IMG/VR virus record: IMGVR_UViG_3300042868_012858
Coordinates: 1 to 64,000 of that record
Length of the DNA: 64,000 nt
Origin: a virus
Reading direction: 5' to 3' (one strand)
Shown here: piece after piece, positions 1,594-43,404 of the stretch
Layout: every line of letters begins with the position of its first letter
Numbering within the stretch: the first letter of the stretch is position 1
The notes under the pieces: model-generated
Database searches by the model: none
What the model was told of the DNA's origin: nothing
Seen by the model: the letters and a program-made list of their open reading frames with translations, nothing else
Position numbers and translations under genes: made by a program

Positions 1594-4278
1594 TTAAAAA
1601 TCTTCGAAGTTTGCTCCAGTAGGAAGAACTTGGAATGTCAAGTCTATGAATTCTGCTGTTCTTGTTGGTTTAAGCTGAATCTTACCTACTAATGTATTTC
1701 TATCAATTGTTTCATTAGTATTGTTTGTATCATCCATAACCACTTTGAACGCAGTCAAACCTCTTTGATTTTGGATTTGCAACAAGATAGGCTCTACTCT
1801 TGCCAAGAATTGATCTCTCAATGTTTGGTCGTTTTGTTCGAACACTAAAGTTTGAGATGCAGCCGCAACCAATCTTCTAACTTGTAGTAACAATCTTCTA
1901 ACATTGATTCTATCAAGAGCAGATTGTCTAACTTGAAGAGTTTTTTGACCATCAATTTTAACACCAACTTGAATTGAAGTTGCGATTGGGTTTACTCTAC
2001 CTTGATACAATGTATCTCTATCTGTTTTCTTAAGCTTAACATCAGCTCTTACAACATTTGCTGGCGCAAGACCTCTAAGTTCACCTGCAGGTGCAATCCA
2101 AGGAGCTGCAACATTATCTGTGTAAGCCATACTTCTAACTACCATGAATGTAGGAGGTTGGTATGTATATTTTCCACTTGTTGGATCTTGTAATTGAACC
2201 CATGGCCAATAAGTTGTAGCGTAGTTTGAATCGATTCCTGTAGACTCAAGGATAGAAACAACCTCATCTGCAGTACCTTTTTCAGTACCAACTGTTAATC
2301 TTGGCGCATCAATGATATATAATGTATCCGCTCTATCTTCTATAATCTCAAGAGCATAGTTGATGATTGAATCATTATTTGAAAAGTCAATACCAGGTGT
2401 TGCGAACAAGTTGATATCTACTTCTTCAGGACTAGCCATCAAATCAATACCTGCTTTGAAAGCATTTACATTATCTAAATAAGCATCTGTAAATTCTTCG
2501 TATAAATTCTCGTATTGTTTGTATTTATCCCATCCATCAAAACCTCCAGCAGGTGCAACAGTAAATTTAAGAAGCGCTTTGTCAATTAAAGTTCCAGCCG
2601 CATTTGTATATGCTGTTAAGCTATTTTTATTACCACTAACGAAAGATGTAGCATCGGCTGTATTTTCCATGTGGAAACCTTTAATTGAAGTCATTCCAGA
2701 AGCAACTCCTCCATCGTATGCAAACAAATCAAATTCTAAAGATTTAACTGAATTTCTTACAGATATTTGGCTTTGAGTTAAACTTGTGTATCCAAGCTCA
2801 GAAAGACCAAGGTAAGTTTTGAATTTAGAATCTCCAGAGAAATATTCAGTTTTGTAGTAAACGTCTGTTGAAGTGATACCGCTAATTCCTGAGTCTCTCA
2901 ATGAATAACCTTCGAATCCTGCAGGTACGGTATTTACAGGGTGATTTTCTTCCATGTCAATTGTAATAAACATTGATCTTCTTGGGTAAGACTCATCAGT
3001 TGTACCGATTATTTTCGCAATATAGTTAGGTTGATCAGGATTCAATGATACGTTTGACCATCTTTCCAATGCTGTTGAAGAAGCTGTTGCATCAGTATCA
3101 AAGTAATTTCTAACAATTAAATCAAATGTGTAGTTTACAATATCAATATTTGCAATAGATATTTTTACTTCATTTGAAGATGCGTCACCATCAGAAATTG
3201 TTTGAACTCTAAACAATCTTCTTACATTAGAACCGATTACTCTAGAAACAATCCAAGGAGTAATTGCATTCGTGTAAGAATCTTCAAAATCTTCGTAAGC
3301 AGCTTCTGTAGAATAAATAATTTCAGGGTTAATTCCTGTAATTTCTTGTCTAGCTGCAGCTTCTCTTACAAAGTGAGGATAAATTCTTTCAACATAGAAA
3401 TTAGGATTTCCGCTTGTTACTTCAGGGCTTTTTCCTAATATTTTAACGATATAATCATCACGTGTCTCATCTAGAGAAATTGTGTATCCGCTATTTGTAG
3501 CCGCAGTTAATGGTCCAGTTGAAGCCGATAGTGTGAATGGTGCTAAAGCAGAAGTTTGATTTCCAATTGTAATTTCATCTTCAGAATTATAGTAAAAACC
3601 TCCTGAAATTTGATTTCTTTTACTTCTAATTATTGCTAATGTTGACCCTGACTTAGACCCTCTTACCTCTACGTTTGTAGCAGCAAGTGTAACTGTAGAT
3701 GCATTGATTAATCCAGTGTTTCCTCCAGTTGCACTAATTCCTAATGCAGTAAATCCAGCAGAAGCAGTAAGACCAGTTAATAACTGATAAGAACTAGTAT
3801 TTCCTGTGTTTGAAAAACCAACATAAGTATCATTACCTACTGTTGTAGCTGTAATTGTACCAGCTGTACCAGCTGCTCCTGAAAGAACAACGGTGTAAGT
3901 TGTTGGCGAAGCAAGTGAATTAATACTGAAAGTAATACCAGTTGCAGTAGTAGATCCTTCGTATTCAGTAGACATGTCTGCAGCAATAATCCAAGCAGGT
4001 GAGTTTTGAAAACCAGTAGTACCCAAAATTCTTACCACATTCAATTCATTTGATTGTGACAAGAAAGAATTAGCAACATAAGGCATAGGATATTTTACAT
4101 TAGTACCCCCAAATCTTAACAGGAACTCATCTGTACTTGTAACTTTTACGCTTTCAAATGCAGGTCCTTTTAGGGTTTTACCAACCAATCCTAATCTAGT
4201 GATACCAATTCTAGATGCAAAAACTGAAAAGTCTTGTTCTTTTGTGTATACACCTGGTGAAACGAATATTGTAGCCAT
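1594..4278 (-). CDS. gp18: Contractile tail sheath protein (T4 gp18-like)
   Basis: N-terminal SPGVYTKEQDFS; C-terminal YATTYWPW, PWIAPAGELRG, RVNPI, GQKTLQ, ALDRINVRRLL, LKPTRTAEFI motifs. Confidence 0.95.
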   Translation of the reverse strand: MATIFVSPGVYTKEQDFSVFASRIGITRLGLVGKTLKGPAFESVKVTSTDEFLLRFGGTNVKYPMPYVANSFLSQSNELNVVRILGTTGFQNSPAWIIAADMSTEYEGSTTATGITFSINSLASPTTYTVVLSGAAGTAGTITATTVGNDTYVGFSNTGNTSSYQLLTGLTASAGFTALGISATGGNTGLINASTVTLAATNVEVRGSKSGSTLAIIRSKRNQISGGFYYNSEDEITIGNQTSALAPFTLSASTGPLTAATNSGYTISLDETRDDYIVKILGKSPEVTSGNPNFYVERIYPHFVREAAARQEITGINPEIIYSTEAAYEDFEDSYTNAITPWIVSRVIGSNVRRLFRVQTISDGDASSNEVKISIANIDIVNYTFDLIVRNYFDTDATASSTALERWSNVSLNPDQPNYIAKIIGTTDESYPRRSMFITIDMEENHPVNTVPAGFEGYSLRDSGISGITSTDVYYKTEYFSGDSKFKTYLGLSELGYTSLTQSQISVRNSVKSLEFDLFAYDGGVASGMTSIKGFHMENTADATSFVSGNKNSLTAYTNAAGTLIDKALLKFTVAPAGGFDGWDKYKQYENLYEEFTDAYLDNVNAFKAGIDLMASPEEVDINLFATPGIDFSNNDSIINYALEIIEDRADTLYIIDAPRLTVGTEKGTADEVVSILESTGIDSNYATTYWPWVQLQDPTSGKYTYQPPTFMVVRSMAYTDNVAAPWIAPAGELRGLAPANVVRADVKLKKTDRDTLYQGRVNPIATSIQVGVKIDGQKTLQVRQSALDRINVRRLLLQVRRLVAAASQTLVFEQNDQTLRDQFLARVEPILLQIQNQRGLTAFKVVMDDTNNTNETIDRNTLVGKIQLKPTRTAEFIDLTFQVLPTGANFEDF

Positions 4279-4611: not shown

Positions 4612-5331
4612 TCATTTCCTACTTTTCTGTTCAGAAATTTTAATTGAAACCTTATTAATTGTATTAACTCTCTCAAATGTTGATGGATCTAAAAGTTTTC
4701 CATGAACAGTTATTGGAATTGTTACTTGATATAACTTTTCAGAGGCTAATTCTTCTTGTAAAGTTTGTGATGGATCTGATATTTTTGAAGCTATATGGTG
4801 ACCATTTATGTTTAAATACCCCTGCCCATTTGAATATCCGTCTCTTAAAACTTTTTCATAATAAGCATTTACATCTACCATGTAATACGCAGCTAAAATC
4901 ATATCATATTCTACATCAACCCAAGTTGGTTGTGGGATTTTATATAGATAATAACCTTTAAGAGTTCCATCAAATGTTGGAACTTTAACAAATTTAAATT
5001 GTTTTTTTACTGGAATTGTTCTTTTTAAGGGTGAAGTTCCAGGTTTTACAGTCTTTCTTGCAATTGCAATAAATGGTCTAGATAGCTCTTCTCCGTACTC
5101 AAATCTAAAATCTTTCCAATTCATTTTTCTTTCAGCCCACAATTCTTGAGCTAAAAATATTACAGGAACGGTTTTTTGATTACCTGTTTCATCTTCAACA
5201 GTTAAATTAAGGTTTTTTATATAATCTACTATCGCTAGATCAATATCTTCTAAAAAAATTCCCTGGGGAAGATAATTGTGATTTTCAAAATCTTTATCCA
5301 AATTTTTCCCTACGTTATCTAGGATTGACAT
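4612..5331 (-). CDS. Tail completion/terminator protein (gp15-like)
   Basis: Position between neck genes and sheath; DIDLAI...VPVIF...ERK, PFIAIAR and PxWVDVEYD patterns typical of the family. Confidence 0.6.
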   Translation of the reverse strand: MSILDNVGKNLDKDFENHNYLPQGIFLEDIDLAIVDYIKNLNLTVEDETGNQKTVPVIFLAQELWAERKMNWKDFRFEYGEELSRPFIAIARKTVKPGTSPLKRTIPVKKQFKFVKVPTFDGTLKGYYLYKIPQPTWVDVEYDMILAAYYMVDVNAYYEKVLRDGYSNGQGYLNINGHHIASKISDPSQTLQEELASEKLYQVTIPITVHGKLLDPSTFERVNTINKVSIKISEQKSRK

Positions 5332-5369
5332 ACTTTCACAAGTTATTTTAAATAAATAGTCTTAAAAAA

Positions 5370-5401
5370 CTTGTAATAAAGAATTCTTTGTTTTATATTT
5401 G
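5370..5401 (+). promoter_or_regulatory. Bacteroidota-type -33/-7 promoter driving a non-coding transcript
   Basis: CTTG(5370-5373)-N20-TATATTTG(5394-5401); consensus TTTG-N19-21-TAnnTTTG. Confidence 0.65.
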
Positions 5402-5404
5402 CCA

Positions 5405-5683
5405 AGGATTTTTTACTTCATATCCCGTTTTTCTTAGGGGCGTTGATTTCGGATATGAAGGTTTTGCACTGGAAAGATGGTAGTTTCATCAGGTGAAAAA
5501 TTTAAAAACAACTCTCTCTTATCTCTTTGTTGTTTATTCAACAAATCTGTAGTAGCAGACAGGATTTTAAAAGTCTTGGGGGGTAAGGGGGGCGTTCAAG
5601 TTTTTGAATTTTTTCCCTAAAAATCTGGTAGTAAAATACCCACTTCTAGTAAAGTATATTACTATTAGTAAGGTGTTTTTTTT
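5405..5683 (+). ncRNA. Candidate highly structured non-coding RNA (class not recognised)
   Basis: Nested helices: 5406-5413/5619-5626; 5416-5425/5451-5460; 5496-5509/5600-5613; 5510-5525/5580-5596 enclosing three abutting hairpins; many G·U pairs valid only on + strand; ends in stem plus T8. Confidence 0.65.
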
Positions 5684-5692
5684 AAAGAAGTA

Positions 5693-6262
5693 TCATCTTC
5701 CCTGGAAAATATCCTCATCAATCTCAACAGCTTTTATAGTGACGAAAAATCTTCTGTCACCAGCCCAAGAGAATTCATTTGAAATTTGAGAATAACCATC
5801 ATCAACAATCTTATAAAATTGTCCTTTGTAACCAATAAAGTGACCCATTTTAATACCAGAAACAATAACGTTTGTACCTTCTTGTCTTGTTATCAATCCT
5901 AATTCGTCTAATTGGTCTATATAGATATGCGCAGTTAAATTTCCTAGTCCTTTCTTCTCGATACCACCAGCCACTTGATATGTAGGGTCCTGAGTCTCAA
6001 CGTTTATTCTTCCAAATATTTGAATTTCAGGAAGCCAAACTTTTCTTTTTGACTCGCCATATAATTTATGTGTCTTTGTTTTTTGAAGGTCTATTCTATA
6101 TAATAAAAAGCTTTCTTGAAGAACACTTTCAGTAATTTCTCTACCAGCAGCAGAAAAGAAATTTCTTTCTTTTTCGCCAAAAAAAAGTTTGATTCCTTTT
6201 GGAATCGCTTCATGAGAATTAAAATTCTCAGGATTTTTACCTATTTCTGTTAAATCTGACAT
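5693..6262 (-). CDS. Neck / head-closure protein (gp14-like)
   Basis: Follows gp13-like gene; LYRID..KTKTHKLYGES..K motif. Confidence 0.65.
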   Translation of the reverse strand: MSDLTEIGKNPENFNSHEAIPKGIKLFFGEKERNFFSAAGREITESVLQESFLLYRIDLQKTKTHKLYGESKRKVWLPEIQIFGRINVETQDPTYQVAGGIEKKGLGNLTAHIYIDQLDELGLITRQEGTNVIVSGIKMGHFIGYKGQFYKIVDDGYSQISNEFSWAGDRRFFVTIKAVEIDEDIFQGR

Positions 6263-6268
6263 CTAAAA

Positions 6269-7462
6269 TTAAAATATTGATATCCCCATAGGTCCAAAAC
6301 CTAAAGTTTTATTAATTGATTCTTGCATCATAGCTCTCTTCTCTAAAATCTTTTCATAAGATAACTCAGCCAATTGAGCAGTAAGCTCTTCTATTAGCTT
6401 TGATTGATCATCTCTACCTGTATTAATCAAATCGTCCTTATTTAGCGTTAATTCAGCTCCAGGTATAGGTAATTGACCATTAAACTTTCCTCTAATACCT
6501 AAACCTAGTATTTCTTTACATAAAGCAAGAGCATATCTCTTAACCCATCTTTGAGCCACAGAGTTAAGTTGATCCCAAGTTATAAAGTTTAATTGGACAT
6601 CAGCAGGCGAAGAAACCAATCCGTTACCCTGATGGCCTGACATACTACCTGAGTATCCACTAAATCCTGGATTTGCAGTATTTCCACTATATAATGGGTT
6701 TCCATAATAATTTTCTTTATCATAGTAGTAGTAAAAAACAGTACCAGGAGTTCCAAAACCACCACCAATACCTAAATTTGCTCCAGATGTTGGATTTGTA
6801 GGATAAGGAATAGGCAATAATCTTAGTGTTTTTGTACCATTTGCACCTGGTTTAAGTATGTATGAATATTCAGAACCTCTTACTCTGTTTCTTAATTCAG
6901 CCGCTTGCGCAGTTAAAAGTGTGTCAAAAACTGGCATTACGTGATATAAAGTATATCCCGCAAAAGAAGCGCCGAATTCTGTAAATGCAATATTTGTATT
7001 TGCAAACGGATCTAAACCAAATAAGTTTACAAAACTAGGAGTAAACCAAAGAACTTCATTCACTTCTCTTCCTGATGGAATTGTATAGTCTTGAGTTCCA
7101 GCTGTAAGAACAATTGAGCCCATTTTAGATTCTCTTACACTATCAGCACCCAAACCTACTTGTTCTCCGTAAGAAGTTGCAAATGATTTTTCGAAATATA
7201 AACTATTTGAAACATATTTTAGGGTAAAATCATATTCAGAAGGCAAACCTAACATCTCGCCTAACCTATTGTTTATCACCCAGTTATTTATAAATGTAGA
7301 ATATTCTTCTATAGCCATACAAATAGCTTCCTCGACTTGTTCGTCGTCGAGCTCGACACCCATAACAGGCTCACCAAGAAAACGTCTTATTCTTCTAATA
7401 AGCTTAGCTCTGTCTGCCTCAGGCATTCCATCTAAGCAGCCATCTGCACAAAATACTCCCAT
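6269..7462 (-). CDS. gp13: Neck / head-tail adaptor protein (gp13-like)
   Basis: LGEPVMGVELDDEQ and WVKRYALALCKEILG..RGKF...PIPG..LTLN motifs. Confidence 0.85.
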   Translation of the reverse strand: MGVFCADGCLDGMPEADRAKLIRRIRRFLGEPVMGVELDDEQVEEAICMAIEEYSTFINNWVINNRLGEMLGLPSEYDFTLKYVSNSLYFEKSFATSYGEQVGLGADSVRESKMGSIVLTAGTQDYTIPSGREVNEVLWFTPSFVNLFGLDPFANTNIAFTEFGASFAGYTLYHVMPVFDTLLTAQAAELRNRVRGSEYSYILKPGANGTKTLRLLPIPYPTNPTSGANLGIGGGFGTPGTVFYYYYDKENYYGNPLYSGNTANPGFSGYSGSMSGHQGNGLVSSPADVQLNFITWDQLNSVAQRWVKRYALALCKEILGLGIRGKFNGQLPIPGAELTLNKDDLINTGRDDQSKLIEELTAQLAELSYEKILEKRAMMQESINKTLGFGPMGISIF

Positions 7463-8550: not shown

Positions 8551-10212
8551 TTAGTAAGTGTTGATGTTGTCGATGTAGATAACTCCGTAGAATCTGTTGT
8601 TAACCATTTTCTTAGCGTAACGAGTCATGATACCTTTTCTAGGTGTGAAATCGTTAGGATCGTAAATAGTTTGAGTCAACTGAAGAGGAATGTATGGTGC
8701 GTAGATATAACCAGCTTCCAAGAAAGTATTACCTTTGTGACCCAACAATACAATTGGAGCAGGTAGATAAGGATCTTTGTAAACTACATATCTTGAACCA
8801 AGATTACCAATTTTCTCAACACCCAAGTTGTATTTTTCAGACTCTGGTTGAGCTGAACCATCAACGTGGAAGTACTCAAGATCATCAAAGATAGCACCAG
8901 CCTCAGCAGAACATACGATCCAGTTAGCACCACCTCTAAGAGTTGATTTGTGGATTTGAGCTGAAAGTTCGTTTACTCTTGTGATAAGAGTTTGGTTCCA
9001 GTCTTTTTGAGTTCCGAAGAAGTTAGCGTTGTTAGAAAGACCTTTGTAATCCCATCTTGCTCTGAATGGAGCCTCATTGATAAGGTCGATGATGATTTCT
9101 CTATCAATCTCTGCAGCGATGTGCTCAGAAAGAAGAGCTGTCAACTCAGCCTCAGCGTCAATTGAGTGGTATGCTTCAAGATCTTGAGCTAATTCTGGAG
9201 TCCAGTGTGCTCTCAATTTTCTTGTTTCAGTGTTAACTGTAACAGAAGAGAATCTAATAGTGATCTCACCCATTTCAGACTTAGCCTCAAGGTTTGTGTA
9301 TACTTCGTATGCAGGAGAGAATAAAACTGGGCACAATGCACCAAATTTTCCAGCTCCGTCATTCACCATTGCAGTGTTGAAGTCTGTTCCGTAAACACCA
9401 GCTGGTCTCAAATCAAGAACAACTCTAGCGTTTCCGTTTGCAAACAAGTCACTTGCGTAAGTTTGAATTTGAGAGTAGAAAGGAATTCTTCCACCAGCAG
9501 CAACAATAAGAGTGTTTCCGTTTGCACCTGAATAGTAAAGGTTAGTTGCAGCAGAGAATCTTAAAGATGCAGAAGATTGAGAAGTTGAAATATCCCATCC
9601 ATTTCCTAAAGCAAATGATCCAGCGTAGATACCATTTGAGAAAGAGTTTGCTGACAACGTAGTAACATAAGTACCAGCTACAGTGTAACCTGTTCCGAAA
9701 GAAAGGTCAAAACCTCTGTTGTTGTAGAATCTCTCATATGCAGATGTATCTGCGAAATCAGGACCAGCTTGTCCGTTAGCAGTATTAGCAGGAGCTACTT
9801 TGCTATAAGAACCAGCACCTGAGTTATCAGGGAAGTTAGGGTAAACTGGATTGTTTAATGTTGTATCAGTTCCGTTGAAAGATACTCTAGCATCCATGTA
9901 GAAAAGTAAACCAGAAGGTAAAGCAAGAGGTTGTACAGATACAATCTCGTTAGCTAACAATCTAGAGAACACTCTTCTTACGATAGGGAAAGCAACTGTA
10001 TCGAATCTACCAGCAGATGAATCAAGAGTTACCTCGTTCAACATTGCTTGTGCTTGATTCTCCATCAATTGCGCAGTGTTTGCTTTTTTCATACCACGAA
10101 GACCCTCAAGAAGACCTGAATCATCCCAGTTTCTTACGATGGCTTGTCTTTGTTCAGCAAGGTTTCTAAATACTGTTAGACCTACCTTACCGCTGTTTAA
10201 AAGTTCGCTCAT
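8551..10212 (-). CDS. gp23: Major capsid protein (T4 gp23 family)
   Basis: LMENQ, FPIVRRVF, VSVQP, TRKLRAHWTPELAQDLEAYHSIDAEAELT, YAPYIPL, FTPRKGIMTRYA motifs. Confidence 0.97.
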   Translation of the reverse strand: MSELLNSGKVGLTVFRNLAEQRQAIVRNWDDSGLLEGLRGMKKANTAQLMENQAQAMLNEVTLDSSAGRFDTVAFPIVRRVFSRLLANEIVSVQPLALPSGLLFYMDARVSFNGTDTTLNNPVYPNFPDNSGAGSYSKVAPANTANGQAGPDFADTSAYERFYNNRGFDLSFGTGYTVAGTYVTTLSANSFSNGIYAGSFALGNGWDISTSQSSASLRFSAATNLYYSGANGNTLIVAAGGRIPFYSQIQTYASDLFANGNARVVLDLRPAGVYGTDFNTAMVNDGAGKFGALCPVLFSPAYEVYTNLEAKSEMGEITIRFSSVTVNTETRKLRAHWTPELAQDLEAYHSIDAEAELTALLSEHIAAEIDREIIIDLINEAPFRARWDYKGLSNNANFFGTQKDWNQTLITRVNELSAQIHKSTLRGGANWIVCSAEAGAIFDDLEYFHVDGSAQPESEKYNLGVEKIGNLGSRYVVYKDPYLPAPIVLLGHKGNTFLEAGYIYAPYIPLQLTQTIYDPNDFTPRKGIMTRYAKKMVNNRFYGVIYIDNINTY

Positions 10213-11812: not shown

Positions 11813-12481
11813 TTAAATATTTTTCCAAAAATCTGAATTAGCAAGCTTGTGCAATTTTGTATAATAATCGTACTGCTCTTTAAGATTTTCGTTGTCTAAT
11901 TTTAATACTTTACCACTTTCTTCTTTTAAAGGAATCATTCCTTTTCTCGCCATATCCCTACCTTCTTTAAAAAGATAAGCTCCAGGAGTTGACGGAGAAG
12001 AAACAAAATCGAATGCAATCAATTCAAAATCTTCTTGCACTAAATCTTTTCCGCTTACATTTTTTACAGAACCTACTCCTCTAGAAGAAATTCCTAGCAT
12101 AAATCCTGCTTTTAATAAACCTTTTAAAGTGCTACCAGCTTTTGTTTCTTCAGCAATCAAGACTTTACCATACAAGTCTTTTCCTTGCCACCACATATCT
12201 GTAACTCTATGAGATACATTTGCAAGAGAAACAACTGCAGAATCAGGGTGATCTAATTCACCACCAGCAGTTCCACTTTCTACAAGCTCCATATATTTAT
12301 CAACCTCTCTTTTAAGAATATCATATGGATAAACTCTACCATTTCTATTTAATGTGTCAGCCTTCTGAAGAATACCTGTCATAACCAAAGGTTTATTCTT
12401 CTCTTCAGATTCTTTTATTAATTCAGGACTAGCCTTAAACTCATAAAATTCTGTAATGATGCATTTACCGCTATTAATCAT
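11813..12481 (-). CDS. gp21: Prohead core protease (gp21 family)
   Basis: NRNGRVYP, GELDHP, GISSRGVGS, DFVSSPSTPGA motifs. Confidence 0.95.
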   Translation of the reverse strand: MINSGKCIITEFYEFKASPELIKESEEKNKPLVMTGILQKADTLNRNGRVYPYDILKREVDKYMELVESGTAGGELDHPDSAVVSLANVSHRVTDMWWQGKDLYGKVLIAEETKAGSTLKGLLKAGFMLGISSRGVGSVKNVSGKDLVQEDFELIAFDFVSSPSTPGAYLFKEGRDMARKGMIPLKEESGKVLKLDNENLKEQYDYYTKLHKLANSDFWKNI

Positions 12482-15178: not shown

Positions 15179-17494
15179 ATGATTAAATATTTAAAAATTA
15201 AAGACAACTTGTATTTAGCACAACAAGTTGTTAGACCTGAACAACAAAAAGAACAAGTTGTTGATTTATCTACACAACATATCTTTGTTATAGACTGCTC
15301 TGGATCTATGTCAGGTGAACTTTCTACTATTAGAAAGGATTTGTTTAACAAAATTTCTACAATTTTAAAACCATCTGATTCTGTAACTATTATTTGGTTC
15401 TCTGGAAGAAATCAATATGGAGTTATTTTAGAAGACTACACTGTGCACAGCAATATCGCACTAGAGAAGGTTAGAGAGACTATTAATAAGTATTTAACTC
15501 CTCAAGGGCTAACAGCATTCAAACAGCCTTTAGAAGAAGTAAAAGCCGTTATTGAAAGAGTTAGAAGCAATAATTCTAATATGCTTCACTCTATGTTTTT
15601 CTTAACTGATGGTTATGATAATCAATTTTCTACAAAAGAAATTTTGAAAGCTACCACTGAGTTAACTGATTATCTAAATAGTGCAACTATTGTAGAATAT
15701 GGTTGGTATTGTAATAGAGAGTTGCTTTCTCAAATGGCTCAAGAAATTGGTGGAGTTCACACTTTTAGTCAAAACTTCCAAGATTATGAACCATATTTGA
15801 CGAAACAATTTACTTCTGACAATAGAGGAAAAAGAACTTACATCGAATTGGCTAATGCTCCAAAGTTTGACATGGTTTTCAATGTTGTTGATGGTGATGT
15901 TGTTATGTATAAAACAAATGAAAACAACGAAATCCTAATCAATGTAAATGGGGACACAAACATTTTCTACTTTACAGATTCTTCTGTTGTTGAAACAGGA
16001 AATTACAACGTTCACAACTTGGAATATATAAAAGAATATTTTAACAATAGAATTGAGTCTGAAATGATTCAAGGAATGTATGCTTCATTATTTGCTTTCA
16101 GTAGAAAATCTGACTATGGAATGGTATCTGAAATCCTAAAAGCTTTAGGTGATGCTTATTTCATTACAGAAAAAGCAAATACTTTTGGGACTCAAAAAAT
16201 TAATGAGTTGGAAGCAAAATTCTTGGATGCTGTTAATGATTCTTCTAAAAGATATATTGATGGGTACAATCCAAATCTAGAACCTGCAGAAGATGCTTAT
16301 TGTGTTTTAGATATGATGCAAGACTTGATGACTCAAGATGGAAATTATTGGTATCCACAGCACGAGGCCTTCAACTACAAAAGAATTGGAAGCAAGACTA
16401 TTGCTAAGATGACTGATTTATCTGAAGAAGATAGACAAAAAATTGATGATTTATTGGATAGCAAAAAACTAGACGAAGCTCAACAACTTCTTGAAGAGAT
16501 TAAGAAAAATCAGCCAACTCAATTAAAGTTTCATTACTTTGGAACATTACAGGCGTTCCCTTTTTATGATCTTGTTTGGAACGAAACTAGAGCCAATCTA
16601 TCTGTTCAAGTTAATTATAAAGGTCATGTTGAATTGCCTGAAAACCAATTCGGTCTTCCAGTTCAATTCCCTACAAACCAATTCAGAAACTACACTTTAA
16701 TTAAAGATGGTATTGTCTATAATTATACATTACCAGTTTCTTTGGGTAGAGAAACATTTGACAAACTTCAGGCGAATGGTTTATTAGATGGTGAGTTTTA
16801 TGAAGAAAATAAAATTTATGTTTTAGATTTTTCTAAACTTCCTGTTATAAACAGAAAAATGGTTAGTACATTATCAGCAAAAGAATTGTTCACAAACGAA
16901 TGGGAATTATTGAAATTAAAATCTTCAAACGCTGTTTATAATTACTATAAAAAGCTTAAGTTCCAAAATACAAGCAAAGGTTTTGTAGAACAATTTGGAA
17001 AAGAGGCTACTGAGTGGTTAGCTACATTTGGATTAAAAGATTACGGATTTAATCCGCCAAAAACTGTTGAAAAGCAGGGTGAGCAAATTGATGTTAACGT
17101 TCTTGAAGTGAAAATTGATAAAATGAGCACAACACCTGGAAAGAAAGAGATAGAATCTGCGGAGAGAAAAATTAACGCAAGTGAATCTCTTACTCCTAAA
17201 GAAGCTCTTGTTGAAAATGCTATTAAAGAAGTTAATCAATTTACAGGATTAATTAAAGAAGTGACCAATCAAGACAAAATGTTAGAAGATTGGTTATATC
17301 AAAAATCTAAATTTTTCAGAACAGAAAAAAATAGATTAATGTCTGAAATTTCTAAAGCAAAATTTTTAACAATTGTTGGAAAAAGTTGGTTTACAGAATT
17401 TGCCGATAGAAGTCAAAACGAAATGACTTTGAATTTAGATTCTCAAGATGTAAAATTCAAGGTTGAGGATAAAATAGAGACTATTACAATTTAA
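15179..17494 (+). CDS. von Willebrand factor A (MIDAS) domain protein
   Basis: FVIDCSGSM (DxSxS), GLTAF, FFLTDG. Confidence 0.85.
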   Translation: MIKYLKIKDNLYLAQQVVRPEQQKEQVVDLSTQHIFVIDCSGSMSGELSTIRKDLFNKISTILKPSDSVTIIWFSGRNQYGVILEDYTVHSNIALEKVRETINKYLTPQGLTAFKQPLEEVKAVIERVRSNNSNMLHSMFFLTDGYDNQFSTKEILKATTELTDYLNSATIVEYGWYCNRELLSQMAQEIGGVHTFSQNFQDYEPYLTKQFTSDNRGKRTYIELANAPKFDMVFNVVDGDVVMYKTNENNEILINVNGDTNIFYFTDSSVVETGNYNVHNLEYIKEYFNNRIESEMIQGMYASLFAFSRKSDYGMVSEILKALGDAYFITEKANTFGTQKINELEAKFLDAVNDSSKRYIDGYNPNLEPAEDAYCVLDMMQDLMTQDGNYWYPQHEAFNYKRIGSKTIAKMTDLSEEDRQKIDDLLDSKKLDEAQQLLEEIKKNQPTQLKFHYFGTLQAFPFYDLVWNETRANLSVQVNYKGHVELPENQFGLPVQFPTNQFRNYTLIKDGIVYNYTLPVSLGRETFDKLQANGLLDGEFYEENKIYVLDFSKLPVINRKMVSTLSAKELFTNEWELLKLKSSNAVYNYYKKLKFQNTSKGFVEQFGKEATEWLATFGLKDYGFNPPKTVEKQGEQIDVNVLEVKIDKMSTTPGKKEIESAERKINASESLTPKEALVENAIKEVNQFTGLIKEVTNQDKMLEDWLYQKSKFFRTEKNRLMSEISKAKFLTIVGKSWFTEFADRSQNEMTLNLDSQDVKFKVEDKIETITI

Positions 17495-17564: not shown

Positions 17565-18188
17565 TTACACTAATCTTTGAAGATAGGTATAGTAATTAAC
17601 TAAAGGAGGGTTCGTAGTTGCTGACAATGTAAATGAAGACGCACTAAGAGCTGTAGAGTTACCGCCTGTTGTTGTAATTCCAAGAGCAGTGTATCCAGCG
17701 TTAGCTGTAAGACCTGTAACAAATTGAGCAGATGTAGTAGGAGCTTTAAATGCAACGAAAACATTGTTTCCAACTGTTGTAGCAGTAATCAATCCCTGAG
17801 TACCATTTGTGTTAGCTGTTAGTGTAAATGTGTAGTTAGTAGGAGTAGAAACATTACCTTTGCTAAATGTAGCACCCGAAACAGTTGTAGTTCCTGTATA
17901 GCCTAAATCAACTTGAGAAATAGTAGACTGCTTCACATTGTTACCTACAAATATAAAAGGCAAATTGCTATAAGAAGCGCCATTATTGTGATAATAAGTT
18001 CCTCTTTCATAATCATAAATCGTAACTCCTTGTCTTGCAAGTTCCGCACGATTTGTAATTTGTTCAGAAACTCTTAAGCCTTTCATAGCAACAATTTTAT
18101 TGCTAGGAATCGCCTTTACAAAAGCCTGAGACCCATCTCTGTATTGAATTTTAAAAGGGTTGTTTGAGAAGTTTACAAGAATTACCAT
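17565..18188 (-). CDS. Putative virion decoration protein sharing a ~90-aa domain with the tail sheath
   Basis: ITATTVGN...TGLTAxAGxTALGI..TGGN shared with sheath aa ~106-202. Confidence 0.6.
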   Translation of the reverse strand: MVILVNFSNNPFKIQYRDGSQAFVKAIPSNKIVAMKGLRVSEQITNRAELARQGVTIYDYERGTYYHNNGASYSNLPFIFVGNNVKQSTISQVDLGYTGTTTVSGATFSKGNVSTPTNYTFTLTANTNGTQGLITATTVGNNVFVAFKAPTTSAQFVTGLTANAGYTALGITTTGGNSTALSASSFTLSATTNPPLVNYYTYLQRLV

Positions 18189-41817: not shown

Positions 41818-43404
41818 ATGAAGTTCAAAGATTTAACTCAAGAACAGATTGAATACGCACAAAAAGTATATTCCAATAAAAGCATAAGCTGGGATGATAG
41901 AATGAAATCTCTAATGGAATTTTTTGGCAAATCTGAAAGAACAGTAAGAAAGTGGTGCTCCGAAAAATTAAAGTTCAAAGAAAAAACTGACCAAGAGCCA
42001 GAGCAGTACGTAAAAGCAAAAGAGAGAAAGCATGATAAATCTAAAAAGAGATTTATTATAACTTGGGCACAAAACAACACTCCAGTTCATAATGGATTCC
42101 TTTCCAATATAAAATCATATGCTGATTATATTGGAGCTGATTTGCATGTTATCGCTGGAAGGTATAAAAACCCAACATCTGTTTGGACTGACCAACAAGA
42201 AAAAGAAGAGTTTTGGGATGATAGCGTTGTTCCTTATTTAGATGCAAACAGACATGATATACATAAGTTTGTATCTATATTGTCTGATATAAAAATACAA
42301 CCTACTGCTGTAAATCCTATGACGGGAATGCAAGGTGTAAGCGGAATTAACTCTTGTATATTTGGTAGCCCAAAGGTGCAATTGGAAATGATTCCTGTAT
42401 TAGAGGGCTGTGCTCCCAAGATGATGGTTACTACTGGCGCTGTTACAAAGAAAAATTACACAGATTCAAAAGCTGGAAAAAAAGGTGAATTTCATCACAC
42501 GTTTGGCTTCGTAATAGTAGAAATAAAAGATGAGCAAACATTTTTTATAAGACAGGTTACTGCTGATGATAAAAATGGTAGCTTTAGTGATTTATATTAT
42601 AGAGTTGAGAACGGAGAAGTATTTGATGTAAATTCTATTTCCGCAATCGTATTGGGTGATTTACATTATGGTCACCACGATGAAGATGTTTTAGATTCTA
42701 CAATAGATTTAATGCACGAATTAACACCCGACCACGTTGTTTTACATGACGTATTTGATGGTAATTCGATAAGTCACCACGAAATGAAAGACCCGTTCAT
42801 TCAATACGGAAAAGAGATATCTGGAAAGAATGATTTAGGTAAGGAAATTGATGAAATGCTGGAGGGTCTAAATAGATTCAAAGATTTTAAAAATGTTGTT
42901 ATCGTAAGAAGTAATCACGATGATTTTTTAGACAGATGGCTTAAGAATGAAGATTGGAAAAAACAGCCTACATTTAAAAACTCTAGGTTGTATATGAAAT
43001 TCAGTGATTTACTTTTAGAACAATATGGTGAAAACCCTTATAATGTAAAAGGTGTTATTCCATCTCTTATAAATGATAGATTTCCTAAATTTATAACATT
43101 AGGCAGAAGCGCATCTTACAAAGTAAAGGGGTGGGAGCTTGGTCAACATGGAGACATAGGTTCAAATGGAAGTAGAGGGTCTCTTTTGCAATTTAGGCAA
43201 TTAAACACAAAAGTTATAGTTGGTCACTATCATAGCCCTGGAAGAAAAGACGGGGCAATAGCAGTAGGGACATCAACTAAACTTCGTGTAGGATATAATA
43301 AAGGCGCTAGTGGATGGCTTCAATCTCACGTAATAATTCACACAGATGGAAGAGCACAACACATTAACTTTATAGATGGAGAATTTACAACTTTTAAAAA
43401 ATAA
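41818..43404 (+). CDS. T5 A1-like protein (HTH plus calcineurin-like metallophosphoesterase)
   Basis: KRFIITWAQNNTPVH..FL.....A..IGADL resembles T5 A1 as recalled; GDLH, HDVFDG, SNHD, HGD, GHYHS metal motifs. Confidence 0.75.
   Translation: MKFKDLTQEQIEYAQKVYSNKSISWDDRMKSLMEFFGKSERTVRKWCSEKLKFKEKTDQEPEQYVKAKERKHDKSKKRFIITWAQNNTPVHNGFLSNIKSYADYIGADLHVIAGRYKNPTSVWTDQQEKEEFWDDSVVPYLDANRHDIHKFVSILSDIKIQPTAVNPMTGMQGVSGINSCIFGSPKVQLEMIPVLEGCAPKMMVTTGAVTKKNYTDSKAGKKGEFHHTFGFVIVEIKDEQTFFIRQVTADDKNGSFSDLYYRVENGEVFDVNSISAIVLGDLHYGHHDEDVLDSTIDLMHELTPDHVVLHDVFDGNSISHHEMKDPFIQYGKEISGKNDLGKEIDEMLEGLNRFKDFKNVVIVRSNHDDFLDRWLKNEDWKKQPTFKNSRLYMKFSDLLLEQYGENPYNVKGVIPSLINDRFPKFITLGRSASYKVKGWELGQHGDIGSNGSRGSLLQFRQLNTKVIVGHYHSPGRKDGAIAVGTSTKLRVGYNKGASGWLQSHVIIHTDGRAQHINFIDGEFTTFKK

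Follow-up and report, generated by a model that had tools for sequence, protein, structure and literature searches.

The 64,000-nucleotide (nt) stretch of DNA analysed here (hereafter, the window) spans positions 1 to 64,000 of IMG/VR virus record IMGVR_UViG_3300042868_012858, a 73.6-kb record with an estimated completeness of 23% (CheckV). The virus is a distant T4-like myovirus with a gp23-type capsid protein (8551-10212, minus strand; PF07068, E = 1.6e-71), and its prohead protease, head-tail adaptor and tail sheath are encoded on the same strand (Table 1). Two minus-strand open reading frames (ORFs; 4612-5331 and 5693-6262) enclose a gap of 361 bp (5332-5692), and within this gap the plus strand, antisense to the neck/tail genes, carries what is almost certainly a stand-alone structured non-coding RNA gene of an uncatalogued family (5404-5638, with a promoter at 5370-5401), the RNA being ~230-280 nt in length. 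An earlier note, made from the DNA letters alone, had named the flanking genes gp14-like and gp15-like; the position of the two ORFs agrees with these names, but homology does not back them, as neither protein had a match in Pfam, PHROGs or PDB sequences. The Microcystis phage Mel-JY01 repeats the order adaptor, small protein, protein of ~240-330 amino acids (aa), small protein, sheath.

The promoter consists of CTTG at 5370-5373, a 20-nt spacer and the box TATATTTG, placing the likely start of the RNA near 5406. TAnnTTTG is presumably the -7 box of the Bacteroidota, for which we take the sigma-A consensus to be TTTG near -33 and TAnnTTTG near -7; both boxes are present with proper spacing and are kept in relatives, with TAnnTTTG invariant and TTG nearly invariant in an alignment of ten sequences, such that the Bacteroidota-type promoter described in the earlier note is found in place and conserved. 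A sigma-70 scan selected the same promoter (TTGTAA-17-TATATT), and a loose version of the pattern occurred 19 times in the record compared to 9.5 times in shuffles. The RNA gene would be transcribed early by the host RNA polymerase, a timing suggested by the host-type promoter, which is unlike the (C/A)TATTTAT motif preceding structural genes. Judging from the promoter type, the host is likely to be a member of the Bacteroidota from freshwater or sediment.

This second motif precedes 13 of 25 gene starts on the minus strand and two of 12 on the plus strand at a distance of 10-45 nt (upstream stretches compared by eye). In the form (C/A)TATTTAT(A/T) it precedes the starts at 1457, 4574, 5331, 7753, 8433, 11758, 12481 and 15089, as well as those at 18188, 21493, 23277, 24482, 53441, 55858 and 61883. 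It is probably the late promoter of the phage, separate from the TTG/TAnnTTTG promoter that serves the RNA gene. Just upstream of the RNA promoter, the conserved stretch AAATAAATAG corresponds on the minus strand to the (C/A)TATTTAT motif of gene 4612-5331 (TAAATAG at 5353-5359 on the plus strand), a motif likewise conserved in relatives.

All of the sequence stretches from which the earlier note had assembled its helices lie where it had placed them, and the ViennaRNA minimum free energy (MFE) fold of 5400-5690 (plus strand) includes every one of these helices. At -86.9 kcal/mol, this fold is far more stable than those of shuffled sequences (mean, -60.66; standard deviation, 4.87; z = -5.39; 0 of 200 shuffles as good), compared to -53.6 kcal/mol for the minus strand (z = -2.48; 5 of 200 shuffles as good), in agreement with the highly structured RNA that had been proposed. 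The P4 arm alone (5494-5620) reached z = -6.30. When the trimmed core (5404-5638) was folded, the linker (5461-5473) paired with the tail (5624-5637) in an alternative closing helix; this helix was 72% paired, and double-sided changes were seen in 8 of 13 pairs, in an alignment that was itself fitted to structure, and breaks down in members with a different tail element.

Relatives were collected from IMG/VR (11 loci) and a metagenome collection (23 loci) using a 189-aa flanking protein as the query (50-98% identity); some of these 34 loci duplicate one another. Based on reading of the loci and on a covariance model (R1) built from 12 close members, the RNA occurs at the same place and on the same strand in 32 of the 34 loci, one of which is cut by a contig end, and is lacking in L006 and L037. 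Full-length matches to R1 were obtained for 24 sequences (the window and 23 loci; E <= 4.5e-5), five of nine new loci from a DNA motif scan of IMG/VR matched the model, and each of four larger related records that were checked held one copy. The conserved intergenic structure anticipated for relatives is therefore borne out, and the RNA family occurs once per genome at a fixed site between two neck/tail genes. The clade that bears it consists of uncultured T4-like phages with genomes of probably ~300 kb. GenBank phages gave no match to the DNA or to the 189-aa flank. In the nearest cultured relatives, Mel-JY01 and Flavobacterium phage immuto, the gene order is kept and the RNA is absent; the genes abut without a gap in Mel-JY01, and the best R1 match in immuto had E = 0.91.

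Table 1. Features of the RNA locus and of neighbouring structural genes in the window.
Feature	Position	Strand	Description
Host-type promoter	5370-5401	+	TTG 5371-5373; TATATTTG 5394-5401
(C/A)TATTTAT-type motif	5350-5360	-	Outside the RNA gene; serves gene 4612-5331
Conserved RNA core	5404-5638	+	Covariance-model match, 254.4 bits (model R1)
P1 closing helix	5406-5413/5619-5626	+	ggattttt/aaaaatct; U-run against A-run
Domain 1 hairpin	5416-5460	+	P2 outer stem 5416-5425/5451-5460, 10 bp
Domain 1 interior	inside 5416-5460	+	Inner U-G-rich helix; first motif copy GGGGCGUUGA 5437-5446
Linker GUUUU(G/U)(C/A)ACUGG	5461-5475	+	Conserved and single-stranded (alignments)
P3 hairpin, gatgg/tcatc	5476-5490	+	Holds variable element copy 1, UGGUAGU 5478-5484
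Domain 2 (P4 arm)	5491-5617	+	P4a, P4b, three apical hairpins, second motif copy
P4a	5496-5509/5600-5613	+	A/U-rich, 14 bp
P4b	5510-5525/5580-5596	+	Pyrimidine-run:G-run, 16 bp
Apical hairpins (three)	5526-5545, 5546-5559, 5560-5578	+	
Second motif copy GGGGCGUUCA	5589-5598	+	In domain 2
3' tail	5619-5638	+	P1 3' strand 5619-5626; variable element copy 2, UGGUAGU 5626-5632
AU-rich hairpin and U8	5633-5683	+	Likely terminator; U8 5676-5683
Tail sheath	1594-4278	-	
Head-tail adaptor	6269-7462	-	
Prohead protease	11813-12481	-	

Several loci depart from this arrangement. L006 (2349-2936, minus strand of the locus) has, at this site and preceded by a promoter of the same type, a different structured RNA of ~480 nt (z = -4.53) that shares with the family only a GGGCGUUGA stretch near the 5' end, though the flank is 79% identical; its best Rfam match, Betaproteobacteria-1, was below threshold (26.3 bits compared to 49.4). 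The site thus seems to accept swapped RNA cassettes. In L030 (~3065-3600, minus strand) and L133 (13062-13532), the RNA gene is separated from the gene for the 189-aa protein by an extra ORF of ~156-170 aa that has a TATTTATAAATA-type motif of its own. By eye, the L030 copy resembles a free-standing HNH-type homing endonuclease; the L133 copy had no Pfam match.

Covariation across the family follows the predicted helices. In the model-based alignment, 81.0% of cells were paired compared to 47-54% when the partners were slid by 1-3 columns, 64 of 88 pairs had changed on both sides, and the covariation score (0.410, compared to 0.188 shuffled) was reached by 0 of 500 shuffles. This alignment is fitted to structure, and the count was repeated with the fold of the window applied to 26 sequences aligned by MAFFT alone (67.0% paired compared to 44-55% slid; covariation 0.231 compared to 0.171; 0 of 500 shuffles). 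With RNAalifold on 12 sequences aligned by sequence alone, 13 of 31 pairs had changes on both sides. The clearest case is P2, for which all ten pairs had changed on both sides in the model-based alignment, with the same outcome in the sequence-only alignments; P3 (helix 4) was 72% paired with five of five pairs changed on both sides. In the inner helix of domain 1, two pairs are U-G in all 24 sequences and a third is U-G in 23 of them, and in both G-run helices the G strand never flips as its partner drifts between C and U (both alignments). Covarying structure is therefore upheld irrespective of how the sequences were aligned. The closing helix P1, which the earlier note had drawn between the two ends of the RNA, gains no support from covariation: it was 69.0% paired with one of eight pairs changed on both sides, 472 of 500 shuffles scored as high, and sliding by one column gave the same score. 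A candidate pseudoknot (UUAGGG 5434-5439 with CCCUAA 5615-5620; 76.8% compared to 76.5% shuffled; 0 pairs changed on both sides) was likewise unsupported, and a scan of all column pairs in the MAFFT alignment was swamped by pairings of U runs with G runs.

The structure belongs to the plus strand, because G-U cells (n = 348) far outnumber A-C cells (n = 54), confirming the strand preference that had been read from the G·U pairs of the window; 81.0% of cells were paired on this strand compared to 66.2% on the opposite strand. The longest ATG ORFs of the members range from 5 to 58 aa and, because their sequences and lengths disagree from member to member (by eye), the element is best described as non-coding, as had been proposed.

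A side-by-side table of 23 genomes established that the RNA is built from two homologous domains. Each follows the same order, consisting of an outer stem, a pyrimidine-run:G-run helix, the constant motif GGGG(C/U)GUUGR leading into a bulge, a returning strand, a U/A-rich linker and a variable element of 5-13 nt. In domain 1, P2 surrounds the U-run:G-run helix, followed by GGGGCGUUGA, the returning strand, a GUUUU linker and UGGUAGU; in domain 2, P4a surrounds P4b, which is capped by the three variable hairpins, followed by GGGGCGUUCA, the returning strand, a CCCUAAAAAUC linker and again UGGUAGU. The variable element differs from clade to clade (UGGUAGU, UGGUAAU, UGGUAGUAUA, GCAAUAUAUC, GCAAUAU, UGCUGA, UGCAA, GCAG, GGAAG and CGGUAUA, as read by eye), yet within any one genome it is identical in both domains at matching positions. 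With the constant motif left out, the similarity of the two domains within a genome was -2.83 compared to -5.09 across genomes (23 genomes), a value reached by one of 2000 permutations. Matched elements are up to 10 nt long and, in the four members with a script-picked element, follow the first motif at a distance of 38-41 nt and the second at 33-36 nt. The domains are alike in structure as well as in sequence, since both keep a G run paired to a pyrimidine run and each has its own covarying outer stem, a combination more in keeping with the binding of one ligand at two places than with sequence identity alone.

Members of other sizes differ at the apical end of domain 2. A 'mini' member (L139:2552-2838, minus strand) retains both domains and both matched elements (CGGUAUA) with a single small hairpin in place of the three apical hairpins, indicating that the apical junction is dispensable. 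Conversely, L008, L027, L029, L035 and L036 have an extra 60-100 nt in the apical junction, in which a CUACC..CUG strand, an inner hairpin and an ACUCA.GUAGACG strand were recognized by eye; this segment may be an added sub-domain.

The reading preferred here, to which a probability of about 0.35-0.4 is tentatively assigned, is that of a bivalent RNA acting in trans. After early transcription by the host RNA polymerase from the Bacteroidota-type promoter, the two like-folded domains would hold two copies of one partner, or one dimer, with GGGG(C/U)GUUGR as the common handle and the matched variable elements determining the contact made in each clade, whether to a base-paired nucleic acid or to a protein that evolves fast; the partner would thereby be sequestered or scaffolded. 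It is preferred because the domains are alike in fold as well as in letters. Several observations weigh against it. Part of element copy 1 is taken up in the P3 helix, and the strand 3' of P3 can, in several members, pair equally well with the tail and with copy 1, such that part of the element matching could stem from alternative intramolecular pairing instead of a shared outside partner. No recurring target complementary to the element was found in two related records (G001 and G002; 29-52% complete). The strict retention of G and the identity of the upstream and downstream segments are also predicted for an R-loop primer, and near-universal presence at a fixed site looks like a core function rather than an accessory decoy. 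A more specific version, considered unlikely, would make the RNA programmable: the duplicated scaffold with its GGGG(C/U)GUUGR handle would carry two identical guide-like segments of 5-13 nt, retuned jointly in each lineage, that direct a conserved partner to a lineage-specific nucleic-acid target, possibly an RNA of the host or, in the priming of replication, the template DNA of the phage itself.

Priming is the basis of the main rival explanation, which is improbable but ranks ahead of the other alternatives. ColE1 RNA II and the T4 origins oriF and oriG operate by R-loop primer mechanisms, and the RNA could be the primer of a similar early, transcription-dependent origin: starting at 5406, its domain 1 would pair with the template strand under domain 2 and anchor an RNA-DNA hybrid from whose 3' end DNA is primed. 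Such a role would account for the constant motif, the U run and the variable element appearing twice with the same letters upstream and downstream and evolving in concert, and for the G strictly kept on the RNA strand of both G runs as the partner drifts between C and U; it is also compatible with a host-type and probably early promoter, a single copy at a fixed place in nearly all relatives, and an intrinsic terminator that is not conserved. As in the ColE1 and T4 systems, a promoter-driven folded transcript has G runs and an upstream segment repeating downstream letters; unlike in these systems, no antisense regulator is visible, the G runs lie in conserved RNA helices and the window copy ends in a hairpin and U8. 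These RNA-RNA helices are under selection and would compete with the hybrid, while the hairpin and U8 would release the RNA. Gripping the template would require the letters only, but domain 1 copies the fold of domain 2 too. Further, the cumulative GC skew makes no turn near 5.5 kb (a weak point, as the skew follows gene direction), and the RNA is missing from two cultured relatives, Mel-JY01 and immuto, in which the gene order is preserved.

The search for complementary sites bears on both the bivalent reading and a simpler one, in which the RNA is a base-pairing sponge or regulator whose identical elements are seeds for one host or phage RNA, merely displayed by the scaffold. In G001 and G002, the exact complements of the element were the RNA gene itself and one site inside an ORF; the target of the element could be in the host. 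Free variation of the element between clades, combined with matching within each genome, is easier to obtain by base pairing than by protein recognition, and in this respect a seed function is attractive. It is nonetheless unlikely, a little more so than priming, given that G001 and G002 lack a recurring complementary site, that the elements are short with copy 1 partly paired, that complementarity to Bacteroidota 16S and 23S ribosomal RNA (rRNA) was no better than in shuffles, and that the invariant GGGG(C/U)GUUGR would be left unexplained. Antisense pairing to or mimicry of rRNA was rejected as a candidate in its own right (longest complementary runs of 8 and 9 nt for 16S and 23S, compared to shuffle means of 8.5 and 9.1), and identity to Bacteroidota 16S/23S rRNA was likewise no better than in shuffles. 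Known decoy and sponge RNAs include the CsrB/RsmZ protein sponges, phage anti-sRNAs and RNA anti-CRISPRs. The present RNA resembles them in presenting a repeated recognition unit on a stable scaffold, in being an RNA of a mobile element and, as proposed here, in acting in trans; it differs in having only two units, each of them a large folded domain, and in bearing no likeness to the CRISPR-repeat families of Rfam.

At the 3' end, the earlier note had described a stem and T8 closing the unit. Both are present in the window and the hairpin is of modest stability (-12.9 kcal/mol, z = -2.27 on the plus strand; -14.8 kcal/mol, z = -2.59 on the minus strand), but a U-tract terminator is not conserved: most relatives have the hairpin without a U-tract behind it (tails compared by eye), and a simple terminator scan did not report the hairpin and U8 of the window. 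The hairpin probably also terminates the converging gene 5693-6262. This arrangement raises the prospect of a cis-acting antisense device, in which pause or termination hairpins, or a switch with the elements as competing strands, would tune the antisense RNA running into gene 5693-6262. The convergence of the two genes and the scarcity of clear U-tract terminators among relatives are in keeping with such a device, as is the pairing of the tail with the strand 3' of P3, which is better than that of copy 1 in L035, L026, L010 and L030; the tail element of the window has a further possible pairing partner in the 3' arm of the terminator hairpin. The alternative helix concerned (5489-5494 with 5623-5628), however, was rejected for want of covariation (59.3% paired compared to 58.1% when slid by one column; family alignment). 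In window-type members, the matching letters reach past the part that pairs with the shared strand, and some members (for example, L008 and L029) lack an internal complement altogether. An elaborate, deeply conserved fold also exceeds the needs of a terminator, and a cis device is considered distinctly less probable than a primer or sponge.

No known RNA class was recognized. The best Rfam matches on the window had 17.6 and 17.4 bits compared to thresholds of 50 and 100 (E > 1), nine related loci gave no match to Rfam 15 at the gathering level, and scans of the window that included transfer RNA (tRNA), transfer-messenger RNA (tmRNA), RNase P, riboswitch, GOLLD, ROOL and CRISPR-repeat models found none of these; ARAGORN predicted 0 tRNA or tmRNA genes in the whole window. 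The earlier note's inability to place the RNA among tRNA, tmRNA, 6S, RNase P or riboswitches is thus matched by Infernal and Rfam. Other ideas (a tmRNA-like 5' end, mimicry of a tRNA D-loop or anticodon loop, mimicry of a CRISPR repeat, a tetraloop receptor and T-box-like acceptor pairing) were set aside in view of the clade-to-clade change of the variable element or for lack of a match to the Rfam models.

The 6S and packaging RNA (pRNA) models of Rfam had no match even at E <= 10 on 296 bases of the window, which bears on a further explanation: a 6S-like RNA that ties up the host sigma-A holoenzyme for the switch to late expression, or a phi29-pRNA-like assembly RNA at the neck. In favour are the host-type promoter, which differs from the upstream motif of the structural genes, and the position of the gene among head-completion, neck and tail genes. 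Like 6S RNA, including the Flavobacteria form in Rfam, the RNA is stable, structured and ~200 nt in length and could act on transcription; unlike 6S RNA, it has no model match and its fold (MFE and family consensus) is multi-branched, with two hairpin domains and P3, in place of the rod and large central bubble of 6S RNA. Clade-specific elements would not be accounted for if the partner were as conserved as RNA polymerase. Loop-loop rings of the pRNA type cannot form because the repeated elements are identical and not complementary, and no internal complement of the element is common to the members. Both roles are therefore rated as very improbable, the lowest of the explanations considered.

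The family was not found in the literature at the level of listings and abstracts, and it is new in being absent from Rfam 15, with a two-domain, matched-element design that is unusual among orphan structured RNAs of phages. GOLLD and ROOL may sometimes be used by phages (PMC5737381). Like these, the RNA is a conserved, intricate, phage-carried non-coding RNA recognized through covariation and an orphan; unlike these, it has no model match, is much smaller (core of ~235 nt), is restricted to a single phage clade, where it keeps to a single syntenic site, is preceded by a Bacteroidota-type promoter of its own, and is built from two domains with matched variable elements. A preprint describes UG27 reverse-transcriptase systems in prophages with arrays of non-coding RNA, some from Bacteroides strains (bioRxiv 10.64898/2026.09.22.753630). 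The likeness is a phage-borne, tandemly repeated structured unit that is conserved in structure and diverse in sequence (10.64898/2026.09.22.753630); the UG27 arrays differ in accompanying a reverse transcriptase. The adjacent reverse-transcriptase gene that would mark an RNA of the retron, DGR or UG27 type is missing here: the neighbours are structural genes, and RVT_1 (PF00078) had no match in the window's record and four related records (G000-G004; 16-52% complete). The Ro-type TROVE domain (PF05731), the protein partner of a Y RNA, also had no match in these five fragmentary records, and the small neighbouring ORFs had no match to an RNA-binding family.

Large uncultured phages of the Bacteroidota are abundant in lakes and sediments, and the control of their infections is almost unexplored. 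That their structural block can contain a deeply conserved RNA gene under separate promoter control suggests an RNA-based step of infection overlooked by protein-centred annotation. Were the RNA a primer, decoy or guide, phage biology would gain a new RNA mechanism and perhaps a compact scaffold that can be programmed; a purely regulatory antisense unit would still constitute a new family of Rfam grade.

A search for bacterial homologues by motif scan of a collection of genome contigs returned 71 stretches in unrelated contexts. Applied to these loci, R1 matched the motif itself in five and gave one longer match of 13.9 bits, all six with E values of 0.027-0.98, and the bacterial matches were read as chance. 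The motif scan also caught a repeated element in Paenibacillus genomes (L044, L047, L050, L060, L061, L087, L091, L101, L103, L104 and L109) that is unrelated to the phage RNA and is present in at least seven copies with identical flanks in one genome. Within the window, host-type promoter signals also lie upstream of two plus-strand genes (15179-17494 and 41818-43404). Apart from that of the RNA gene, the sole intergenic match to the host-type promoter pattern precedes 41818, and a TATATTTG box also precedes 15179; these two genes may be co-expressed with the RNA.

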